From Pristiophorus japonicus (lineage: Eukaryota), in assembly GCF_044704955.1 (NCBI RefSeq), contig NC_092007.1, positions 8,308,001 to 8,372,000 of the forward strand: 64,000 nucleotides of DNA. Reading direction: 5' to 3'. The notes beneath the pieces were generated by a model. That model searched no databases and was not told the origin of the DNA. It was given only the letters and a program-made list of their open reading frames with translations. This document shows positions 26,360 through 57,684 of this stretch, piece after piece (the first letter of the stretch is position 1; each line of letters opens with the position of its first letter). The position numbers and the translations under genes were made by a program.

Positions 26360-26600
26360 GCCTGAGGGATAGACACAGCTGTTCCCGGCCTGCCGGAGAC
26401 CTCTTGCGTCACCCGTGGAAGGTCCCTGAGAAACACACACCTGCTGCCCACCTTTCCAAGGACCTATTCCCCGCTCCCGCCTCTCCCCGTCACCACTAAT
26501 GGGTCTTGTGATCGTGTTGTTCCACGTTAACAGACCTCGCGTGCAGCCTATATAAAGTCCCAACTTCACACTACCCACAGTCACGGAGCTCGAAGCGACA
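26360..26600 (+). promoter_or_regulatory. Gene C proximal promoter and 5'UTR (TATA 26549-26556)
   Basis: TATATAAA plus E-boxes; near-identical to the gene A promoter. Confidence 0.75.
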
Positions 26601-26640
26601 ATGAAGACCCTTCTGTTCATGGTGTTCCTGGGCCTGGCTG
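26601..26640 (+). CDS. prss1: Trypsinogen C exon 1
   Basis: [13 protein letters not shown] + G|gtaaac; identical to A. Confidence 0.9.
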
Positions 26641-29600
26641 GTAAACGTTACTGAGTTCTGCCCGTTCCCTCGTCCCATTTGGGGAGGGCTAACAAGGCGA
26701 GGGAATACACAATAAATGGTCGGACACTGAGAAGTATAGAGGAACAGAGGGACCTTGGAGTGCAGGTCCACAGATCCCTGAAGGTAGCAGGCCAGGTGGA
26801 TAAGGTGGTTAAGAAGGCATACGGGATACTTGCCTTTATTGGCCGAGGCATAGAATATAAGAGCAGGAGGATTATGCTTGAACTGTATAAAACACTGGTT
26901 AGCCCACAGCTGGAGTACTGCGTGCAGGTCTGGTCACCACATTACAGGAAGGATGTGATTGCACTGGAGAGGGTACAGAGGAGATTTACCAGGATGTTGC
27001 CGCGACTGGAGAATTTGGGATGAGGAAAGATTGGATAGGCTGGGGTTGTTTTCTTTGGAACAGAGGAGGCTGAGGGGAGACCTGATTGAGGTGTGTAAAA
27101 TGATGAGGGGCCTGGATAGAGTGGATAGGAAGGACCTGTTTCCCTTGGCAGAGGGGTCGACAACCAGGGGGCACAGATTGAAAGTAATTGGGGGGGAGGT
27201 TTAGAGGGGATTTGAGGGGAAATGTCTTCACCCAGAGGGTGGTGGGGGTCTGGGGTGGAACTCACGGCCTGAAAGGGTGGTAGAGGCAGAAACCCTCACC
27301 ACATTTAAACAGTACCTGGATGTACACTTGAAGTGCTGTAACCTACAGGGCTACGGACCCAGAGCGGGAAAGTGGGATAAGGCTGGGTAGCTCTTGGTCG
27401 GCCGGCACGGACACGATGGGCCGAAATGGCCTCCTCCCACGCCGTAAATCTCGGTGATTCGATGATTCTCTTCCCTCTCCCGTTCTCGAGGTTCTCTCTC
27501 CCCCCTCGCCTCTCTCTGTCACTTGTCCCCCCCGCTCGCCCCCCCCCCGAGGTTTAACCCCCGTTCTCTGTCACTTGACCCCCACAGCCGCTGCCCCTTT
27601 CGACGACGATGACAAGATAGTCGGAGGCTACGACTGCGCCAAGCATGAAACCCCCTGGATCGTCTCCCTCAACGTGGGATACCACTTCTGCGGGGGCTCC
27701 CTGATCCACCCCAACTGGGTGGTCTCAGCCGCCCACTGCTACAAAAAGTAAGTGTTTAGATTGAGGAGCAGGAAGGGGCTCGGGGGGTGAGGGGGGTCAG
27801 TGAGGTGGTGGCTCTTCGAACCGTGAGATCGGTTCTCAGGTTCCGCCCATTGTCCAATGGCGGTTCCAAGATTGTCCGTGTTGGTGCCAAGACTGGGAAC
27901 TTCCTCCAACTGAAGATCGGGCGGCCTTCGAACCCCGACACAAACTCTGTGTTCCCCCTCACCACTGACTTCCCTGCCCAATGTCTGAGGCTGGACCGAA
28001 CCGCGCTGGCGATTCCGTGTCCCACTCGATCCCGAGGTGAGCTCCTCAGCCCCACAGCCTCTCGATAGCCGGCACCCTGCCGACTCCCACCACCGTGCCT
28101 CTCCGCTCCTTGCCTCAGCTCACTCACCGACCAAACCCTCGTCTACGCCTCTGCTCAACGATTCCAACCCACCTCCCTCAACTTGAGCTCATCCAAAACT
28201 TGGCTGCCCCCTCTGTCTCCTAACTCGCACCGAGTCCCGCTCACCCATCACCCCCTGTGCTCACTGCCCCGTGTCCTAACTCGCACCGAGTCCCGCTCAC
28301 CCATCACCCCCTGTGCTCACTGCCCTGTGTCCTAACTCGCACCGAGTCCCACTCACCCATCACCCCCTGTGCTCACTGCCCCCGTGTCCTAACTCACACC
28401 CAGTCCCACTCACCCATCACCCCCTGTGCTCACTGCCCCCGTGTCCTAACTCGCACCAAGTCCCACTCACCCATCACCCCCTGTGCTCACTGCCCCGTGT
28501 CCTAACTCACACCGAGTCCCGCTCACCCATCACCCCCTGTGCTCACTGTCCCCGTGTCCTAACTCACACCGAGTCCCACTCACCCATCACCTCCTGTGCT
28601 CACTGCCCCGTGTCCTAACTCACACCGAGTCCCGCTCACCCATCACCCCCTGTGCTCACTGTCCCCGTGTCCTAACTCACACTGAGTCCCACTCACACAT
28701 CACCCCCTGTGCTCACTGCCCCGTGTCCTAACTCACACCGAGTCCCACTCAGCCATCACCCCCTGTGCTCACTGCCCCGTGTCCTAACTCGCACCGAGTC
28801 CCGCTCACCCATCACCCCCTGTGCTCACTGCCCTGTGTCCTAACTCACACCGAGTCCCGCTCACCCATCACCCCCTGTGCTCACTGACCCCGTGTCCTAA
28901 CTCACACCGAGTCCCACTCACCCATCACCCCCTGTGCTCACTGCCCCGTGTCCTGAACACATTGTCTCCCGTTTAAACAACGCTTCAAATTTCTCATCCT
29001 TGTTTATCAATCCCTCCTCGCCCCATTCCCGATCTCTGTAACCTCCTCCAGCCCCTACACCCCTCCCTAACTCTGTAACCTCCTCCAGCCCCTACACCCC
29101 TCGCTATCTCTGTAACCTCCTCCAGCCCCTACACCCCTCCCTATCTCTGTAACCTCCTCCAGCCCCTACACTCCTCCCTATCTCTGTAACCTCCTCCAGC
29201 CCCTACACCCCTCCCTATCTCTGTAACCTCCTCCAGCCCCTACACCCCTCCCTATCTCTGAAACCCCCTCCAGCCCCTGCACTCCTCCCTATCTCTGTAA
29301 CCTCCTCCAGCCCCTACACCCCTCCCTATCTCCATCACACCTTCCCGCCCCTACATCCCTCCCTATCTCTGTAACCTCCTCCAGCCCCTACATCCCTCCC
29401 TATCTCTGTAAACTCCTCCAGCCCCTACACCCCTCCCTATCTCTGTAACCTCCTCCAGCCCCTACACTCCTCCCTACCTCTGTAACCTCCTCCAGCCCTG
29501 ACACCTCTCCCTATCTCTATAACCTCCTCATGCCTTACACCCCTCCCTATCTCTGTAACCTCCTCCAGCCCCTACACCCCTCCCTATCTCTGAAACCCCC

Positions 29601-57460: not shown

Positions 57461-57566
57461 GATCGTCTCTCCGTGGGACCGAGCTGTCAGAGGGGACATA
57501 CTGCCAGATAATTCCTCCCCGCAGTGACTCCCACATCACACCCCTCTGTACCGGCTCCTGTAATTC

Positions 57567-57572
57567 AATAAA
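57567..57572 (+). terminator. Poly(A) signal of gene C
   Basis: AATAAA 107 nt after the stop codon. Confidence 0.85.
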
Positions 57573-57684
57573 AGGACACACACAGAAAATAACACGTCTC
57601 GATCTCTCCATTCCCATCACCCGCCCTCAACCTTATCTCCTCCCCTTCGTTCCATCAACTCGCTTTGTGTTTCAGTGTCTGTCA

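Follow-up and report, generated by a model that had tools for sequence, protein, structure and literature searches.

Near-identical ends and a diverged middle in a trypsinogen gene of the shark Pristiophorus japonicus, a probable product of repeated gene conversion

How can a gene be almost identical to its neighbours at both ends and clearly different from them in between? The question was raised by a trypsinogen gene, called gene C here, in a window of 64,000 nucleotides of Pristiophorus japonicus (assembly GCF_044704955.1; contig NC_092007.1, hereafter C33, 8308001-8372000). The contig is 13.6 Mb long in a genome of 5.9 Gb, and the coordinates given below are window positions unless the contig is named. 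The window contained three five-exon trypsinogen genes; gene A lies on the minus strand, and genes B and C lie on the plus strand. In each of them the frames were open and the introns had GT-AG ends. A first-pass annotation had described gene C as a mosaic with an A-like 5' end, a B-like 3' end and anciently diverged exons 3-4. In our study, the patchwork of gene C was found to be real; its ends are near-identical to its neighbours and its middle is about 15% different. We consider it probable that gene C is an old paralog, which was overwritten by repeated short non-allelic conversions wherever homology survived, with borders lying at broken homology.

The exons of gene C fell into two classes. 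Exon 1 (26601-26640), with Met7, was identical to that of A and differed from that of B at 1 of 40 nucleotides. Exon 2 (27588-27747), which encodes the activation peptide and His57, was also identical to that of A and differed from that of B at 1 of 160 nucleotides. Exon 5 (57311-57460), which encodes Ser195, differed at 3 of 150 nucleotides from each neighbour. Exon 3 (36976-37226, Asp102) differed at 38 of 251 nucleotides from both A and B, and exon 4 (39903-40039, Asp189) at 20 of 134 nucleotides (21 under another gap placement). In total, 3-5 of 350 nucleotides differed in exons 1, 2 and 5 and 58 of 385 in exons 3-4 (Fisher p = 6e-14 for A against C and 2e-12 for B against C). The earlier hand count of 26 amino acid substitutions in exons 3-4, together with one extra residue, was reproduced. 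The residue numbers of the active site are given in what we take to be chymotrypsin numbering.

The contrast was also found at sites that do not change the protein. In exons 3-4 the synonymous divergence (dS) was 0.36, the nonsynonymous divergence (dN) 0.114 and dN/dS 0.31, whereas dS at the ends was 0-0.09. About 26 differences were present in 89 synonymous sites of exons 3-4 against 1 in 85 at the ends; at synonymous sites alone the contrast gave p = 7e-8 against A and 1e-5 against B. The tracts of near-identity were clustered against an older background at both synonymous and non-coding sites. Exons 3-4 do outpace the ends in shark trypsin proteins, and gene C might accordingly be a recent duplicate in which these exons were merely fast. 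This has a negligible chance of being correct, because a middle with dS of 0.36 and flanking non-coding DNA of 19-31% divergence, next to ends that diverged by 0-1%, cannot come from fast evolution of the protein alone.

The homogenised block at the 5' end extended from 26360 to 27921. It was A-like from 26436 to 26834, 5-7% diverged in the repeat of intron 1, and without any difference from A in the 334 bp made up of exon 2 and the following 174 bp. In the unique DNA between the promoter and the beginning of intron 1, 17 sites were private to B and 4 to A (p = 0.007), whereas the exon 2 block contained just three sites informative for A or B affinity. The A-like 5' end of the first-pass annotation therefore holds for the promoter stretch, as far as early intron 1. 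Met7 was common to A and C only. None of 27 other elasmobranch rows had Met at that column; they carried Leu/Val/Ala/Phe/Thr-type residues around this stretch. The abrupt loss of identity to A, placed earlier at about 27921, was seen exactly there, and no residual homology followed it in intron 2. Upstream of the block, a repeat at 25995-26359 on the plus strand, presumably a short interspersed element (SINE) as first labelled, stood at the same position as in A and differed from it by 6%. The copy of A ranked 31st among the best 40 genome matches of this repeat. Its position is shared with A, but its identity is not diagnostic, and the repeat was rejected as evidence of A-likeness.

At the 3' end, the homogenised block (56962-57685, plus strand) contained a G-rich 52-bp array, exon 5 and the 3' untranslated region (UTR). 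In the whole block, 13 sites were private to A and 3 to B (p = 0.02). From about 57385 the sequence was B-like, with 11 A-private sites against 1 B-private site (p = 0.006, with a boundary picked after the sites were seen). Exon 5 and the 3'UTR had been said to match B. This was found to be true of the exon 5 protein, which equals that of B, and of late exon 5 and the 3'UTR; at the DNA level, exon 5 is no closer to B than to A. The Tyr223 and Lys233 of A look derived when compared with other sharks.

The unconverted middle of gene C (27922-40113, plus strand) contained exons 3-4 and introns that were either non-homologous to those of A and B or old and diverged. No homology to A or B was found in intron 2 past 27921, nor in most of intron 3. 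Around exon 3 the homology stopped within about 7 bp of the exon on either side, and A and B carry a 68-bp array right at the exon 3 donor. Before exon 4, a SINE-like repeat differed from its counterparts in A and B by 24-25%; behind the exon, divergence was 19% over the first 75 bp of intron 4. The non-coding flanks of exons 3-4 (19-25% diverged or unalignable) were thus more diverged than the exons themselves (15%). The extra residue of gene C, Val152, had been read as an insertion in C. The residue is there, but it is not an insertion, since the exon 4 acceptor lies 3 nucleotides further downstream in A and B, with a gap-free alignment, and is unshifted in C. Val was present at this position in 13 of 14 other elasmobranch trypsins. 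Judged from these sequences, Val152 is ancestral and was lost in A and B through the acceptor shift. The shift itself (14652-14657 in B against 39900-39905 in C) arose by point changes, which deleted an otherwise conserved Val.

A third overwritten tract, overlooked in the first-pass annotation, was found on the plus strand at 40114-40438. It consisted of unique intron 4 DNA and a repeat tail, and was about 92% identical to A (24/299 differences) and B (19/227). Its unique part matched A and B only, genome-wide, and its repeat tail contained 14 sites private to A and C. The left edge lay in a G-rich run, where C is without about 35 bp and an insert that are present in A and B. The insert, which is CR1-like (14949-15622 in B, 3272-3949 in A), was indeed common to A and B and missing from C, as noticed before; where it ends on the right, the third tract begins. 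Introns homologous but diverged around exon 4, as described earlier, were confirmed for the first 75 bp or so of intron 4 but not for the tract beyond. To the right of the tract followed a CR1-like core (40439-41514, plus strand), 98% identical to dispersed copies on C33 and split by an insert that only C has, at about 40763-41360. The CR1 label is one that we take over from the first-pass annotation. Next came an old rim of the element (41515-41619, plus strand), in register with A and B and 31% diverged, and then 15.3 kb of C-only intron 4 (41620-56961, plus strand), 96% repeat-like and without collinear homology to A or B. The whole of 40114-41514 was also considered as one tract between A/B and C (4% divergence) and rejected; the core had no A+C-private sites. 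Only 40114-40438 was counted, because the core is as similar to unrelated copies as it is to A and B.

The third tract also bears on the proposal that the 9-kb and 17-kb introns stop conversion tracts by their sheer length. Introns 2 and 4 of gene C are 9,228 and 17,271 bp long against 1.1-3.7 kb in A and B, are 73% and 94% repeat-like, respectively, and could not be crossed by tracts of the size seen. However, these tracts measure only a few hundred bp, so that local loss of homology suffices to end them, and the third tract lies inside the 17-kb intron, 75 bp from the exon 4 donor. As a converted unique tract stands inside the supposed barrier and the borders lie where homology is lost, we consider intron length a highly improbable cause.

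When all patches were compared, four flanking patches of gene C were found to be 92-100% identical to A or B. The differences counted along the tracts were 0/334, 5/475, 15/312, 24/299 and 2/225. The nearest partner switched along the gene, with 17 B-private to 4 A-private sites near its start and 3 to 13 near its end. The tract borders coincided with the end of collinear homology at 27921, at both flanks of exon 3, at the right edge of the CR1-like insert of A and B, and at 56962, and old non-coding homology of 19-31% divergence adjoined tracts of 0-8%. Repeated conversion is favoured because the patches differ in age. The synonymous and intronic contrasts also support the earlier view of an old paralog with recently homogenised ends. 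Under this reading, an old duplication would have separated C from the ancestor of A and B. Indels in introns 2-4 would then have turned exon 3 (251 bp) and exon 4 (about 650 bp with its flanks) into islands, which diverged beyond pairing, while tracts of about 300-500 bp may have been exchanged repeatedly at different times. The partners would have been A and C at the promoter and exon 1, all three genes at exon 2, B and C at late exon 5 and the 3'UTR, and A and B in the middle. It was probably the neighbouring repeat core that seeded the tract in intron 4, after this core had become near-identical in all copies. Conversion is reported to persist until pairing is broken by substitutions, inserted elements or large indels (PMC3924837).

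A single complex event, either template switching or a double unequal crossover, might instead have joined A/B-type ends to the middle of an older gene, with later conversion as mere retouching. The sharp break at 27921, the disappearance of intron 2 homology, and the left border of the tract in intron 4, set in a G-rich run with about 35 bp and the insert of A and B missing in C, would all fit such an event. The patches, however, range in age from 0% to 8-12%, their nearest partner varies, they form three separate blocks interleaved with old sequence, and the donor of the middle is absent. We regard one complex event as quite unlikely.

The fusion of A/B-type ends with an unrelated middle by assembly or polishing is given very little credence. 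Introns 2 and 4 contain satellites of up to 3.8 kb, the read check covers the 27921 junction, and the exon joins of gene C are predicted from DNA, which leaves room for an artefact. No N letters were found in the window, however, and C-private sites were present in both end blocks. A 671-bp read contig (run X3, 1 of 4 runs aligned) covered 27539-28200 with 0 mismatches or gaps, and bridged exon 2 and the break at 27921. Genome-wide, exons 2, 3, 4 and 5 (with UTR) had three close copies each, all inside the window, ordered and on one strand in gene C. There is therefore no spare donor, nor are there orphan ends. No displaced old exon 1, 2 or 5 was found in the introns or flanks of C.

Several points weigh against repeated conversion of an old paralog. 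Conversion is inferred here from one genome; runs X5 and X19 covered only repeats and not exon 2, at 85% likeness, and gave no outgroup. The X3 contig was built from short reads at a depth of 3.2, and its source may be the assembled individual. The razor-sharp break at 27921, where homology does not fade, also fits a one-sided template switch. What B and C have in common at the 3' end could in part reflect changes specific to A. Borders at heterology could follow from, and not cause, an escape driven by selection. Finally, a protein that is alike at its ends and different in its middle would by itself prove nothing, as a between-species comparison of Scyliorhinus canicula and S. torazame gave 3/113 differences at the ends and 21/130 in the middle.

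Paralogs with a similar protein pattern were observed in the white shark (P0048 and P0050; 2/114 at the ends and 26/130 in exons 3-4) and in the basking shark (P0049 and P0263; 2/114 and 17/130). A shark-wide rule of homogenised ends and a free middle was considered and dropped, and these pairs, in which the loops may simply have evolved faster, are not taken as evidence of conversion, because the Scyliorhinus species pair shows the same pattern.

Selection on exons 3-4 is possible, but that selection against converting C-type exons 3-4 was the primary cause, with intronic heterology arising later, we consider unlikely. In the exon 3-4 trees the branch of C was about twice that of B (0.20 vs 0.096 and 0.18 vs 0.083), and the changes were clustered in surface loops, presumably 75-77, 94-98 and 165-178 in chymotrypsin numbering. 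The intron 4 tract ends 75 bp before exon 4, and the frame, the triad and all 12 Cys were kept. These observations favour selection, whereas the dN/dS of 0.31, a polarity count of 16 vs 8 that was not significant (p = 0.15) and the variability of the same loops among all shark trypsins do not. In addition, the flanks (19-25%) are more diverged than the exons, whereas the signature of selection in opsins is an exon peak between homogenised introns (PMC3924837); no such exon-confined peak was found in gene C.

The age of the middle was approached with protein trees built with the 27 other elasmobranch rows; the first tree dropped 8 of 33 rows as near-duplicates and the second kept 16 rows. No C-type middle was found among these 27 rows. 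B and C were sisters in the exon 3-4 trees (82/75 and 92/92, unstarred), and groupings of B with Squalus or Heterodontus were not rejected in the approximately unbiased (AU) test (p = 0.21 and 0.35). The word 'anciently' used earlier for the divergence of exons 3-4 is, from these trees, best read as relative, as the B and C middles are still sisters and older placements are not rejected. The split of C from A and B appears old in substitutions and is probably lineage-specific. Synonymous rates are reported to be raised on short shark chromosomes (10.1101/2022.10.17.512540).

The CR1-like core beside the third tract was found to belong to a larger pattern. When it was searched with the C-only insert removed, 34 of the 41 best genome rows (self included; best 40 of 5,798 candidates scored) were on C33. 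The C33 matches other than self were 92-99% identical and spread over 5.2-11.5 Mb. Of the other rows, 3 were on small unplaced contigs and 4 on C28 and C20, at no more than 91%. A C20 copy used as the query gave matches of 91-93% over many chromosomes and none on C33 among the matches listed. From the 41 rows, 20 were fetched; 16 C33 copies were compared and two off-chromosome copies served as control, one copy that shared flanks with another and one unplaced copy being dropped. Among themselves, the 16 C33 copies had unrelated flanks (33%), a tail of 87% and a core of 97-98% identity, whereas the identity of the off-chromosome copies to them was 91-92% for the core and 85% for the tail. For gene C against the 16 copies, identity was 98% within the core, 60% in its tail, 33% in the flank and 73% (n = 4) in the far rim. 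All copies, control included, were chosen by likeness to the core of C, which inflates the core identities.

In the far rim of the element, C and A differed by 31%. The CR1-like copies in A and C are old insertions with a refreshed core, because their rim is 31% diverged and their core is 98% like that of unrelated insertions. This suggests a chromosome-wide homogenisation of the repeat, which may re-seed conversion between genes; the other C33 copies may, alternatively, form a young, locally spread subfamily. GC-biased convergence was considered as a source of the common core and found no support (4 AT-to-GC changes, 2 reverse and 3 other, hence few sites); the GC content of the core was 0.57 both on and off C33. 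Confinement to C33 was not seen for the C-only insert (40800-41130) and does not hold for every repeat, since only 8 of the best 40 matches of this insert were on C33. For the SINE-like repeat upstream of gene C (26000-26320), 27 of the best 40 genome matches were on C33 and 9 on C32. As a tentative idea, which we rate rather doubtful, the old CR1-like insertions of C33, a small and GC-rich chromosome, may form one conversion network of at least 6 Mb, in which refreshed cores provide new pairing sites within long-diverged paralogs and restart conversion there, as next to exon 4 of gene C, and non-shared insertions insulate exons 3-4. If so, repeats would determine which exons within a gene family remain tied to one another and which diverge freely, and there would be a testable route by which conversion is restarted between diverged paralogs; this side finding would then outweigh the mosaic. 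Homogenisation confined to a chromosome, if true, would also distort repeat ages on small shark chromosomes.

Conversion between Alu repeats has mainly been reported within about 10 kb (PMC6598467, PMC8230782). There, likewise, an old insertion takes the sequence of other copies and keeps its site. The near-identical cores on C33, in contrast, lie scattered across 5.2-11.5 Mb on a single small chromosome and are absent from the best matches elsewhere; a network of this kind would span several hundred times the Alu range.

Islands of divergence within converted duplicates have been described for exon 5 of the human red and green opsins and for Drosophila CG18281/CG17637 (PMC3924837, PMC2588116), and a divergence island amid conversion for copepod GOT1p1/p2 (PMC3728101). 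As in gene C, part of the gene is diverged and near-identity surrounds it; in these systems the pattern is maintained by non-allelic conversion. In the opsins, the exon peak stands between homogenised introns and is tied to known selected sites, whereas the introns around exons 3-4 of C either exceed the exons in divergence or cannot be aligned, and this speaks for a homology barrier. Also unlike these systems, three genes exchange here and the partners differ. Among human trypsinogens, conversions from PRSS2 to PRSS1 and from PRSS3P2 to PRSS1 yield hybrid alleles (PMC5187948). These, too, involve clustered paralogs of the same family; they are described as rare disease alleles, whereas several tracts, with 26 residue differences confined to exons 3-4, are present in the shark reference assembly. 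Among the papers listed on trypsinogen conversion and duplication, on shark CR1 conversion and on chromosome-specific conversion of retrotransposons, in a library with few subscription papers, none on this locus or repeat pattern was found. The mosaic is an ordinary product of concerted evolution, a known process. It means that whole-gene trees and dates of shark trypsinogens mix segments of very different age. The borders in gene C are legible at the level of single bases, and speak for broken homology rather than for intron length or demonstrated selection.

Gene C itself is predicted to be an intact vertebrate trypsinogen gene (S1A, PF00089). Its protein matched PF00089 over positions 1-220 with 263 bits (cut-off 20.6). 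Its five exons encode a signal peptide, recognised by alignment, and an acidic activation peptide with a terminal Lys before IVGG. When aligned to rat trypsin II, it contained H63, D107 and S199 of the triad, D193 of the pocket and 12 Cys in the mature chain. The best match among solved structures was rat trypsin II (PDB 1co7_E, E = 1e-114). Like the anionic trypsinogens of vertebrates (rat trypsin II; dogfish TRYP_SQUAC), C has a DDDDK-type activation peptide, the triad, Asp189 and 12 Cys, and it differs from rat trypsin II by being one residue shorter in the autolysis loop. It carries Ser where we take Phe82 to be usual, and Phe at what is presumably position 165. Gene C would encode an anionic trypsin with the promoter of A and altered surface loops. 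The UniRef proteins P0123, P0029 and P0122 of Pristiophorus japonicus were identical to the three gene translations, P0122 being an annotation model.

Gene A (267-7752, minus strand) has exons at 7713-7752, 6602-6761, 5227-5477, 4110-4243 and 267-416. The exons of gene B (9573-17144, plus strand) are at 9573-9612, 11669-11828, 13135-13385, 14655-14788 and 16995-17144. A and B were observed to be head-to-head inverted copies with start codons 1.8 kb apart. Their exons 3-4 were identical, whereas their promoters were 6% and their 3'UTRs 4.5% apart, which is the mirror image of the pattern in C. The array at their exon 3 donor has units of 68-69 bp (13340-13959 in B, 4928-5272 in A), which repeat the last 46 or so nucleotides of exon 3 and the GTAAG donor. 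It contained 9 units in B and 5 in A and was absent from C. Read-through past the first donor hits a stop, and in the database isoforms P0027 and P0121 the donor lies inside the first unit. Arrays of a 33-bp tandem unit were present at 8442-8719, 17369-17642, 25334-25988, 38845-39476 and 57685-58380. They directly follow the 3'UTRs, precede genes A and C on their upstream side, and occur within intron 3 of C. The outer ends of both end tracts of C fell within such arrays.

No trypsinogen-like genes were found within 100 kb downstream of the window, and six more distant ones were found up to 215 kb upstream. A second trio of distant trypsinogen-like genes was observed at C33 8232520-8280234 (L019-L024), one inverted and two near-identical in tandem about 23.5 kb apart. 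No mosaic pattern was found in this trio, as differences were present across all exons (4/153, 12/258, 3/126 and 3/144). In the trypsin-family search, about 10 near-identical intronless serine-protease frames of about 290 amino acids were also found on the small contigs C158, C220, C426, C466, C799, C190, C164, C4177, C410 and C3791.

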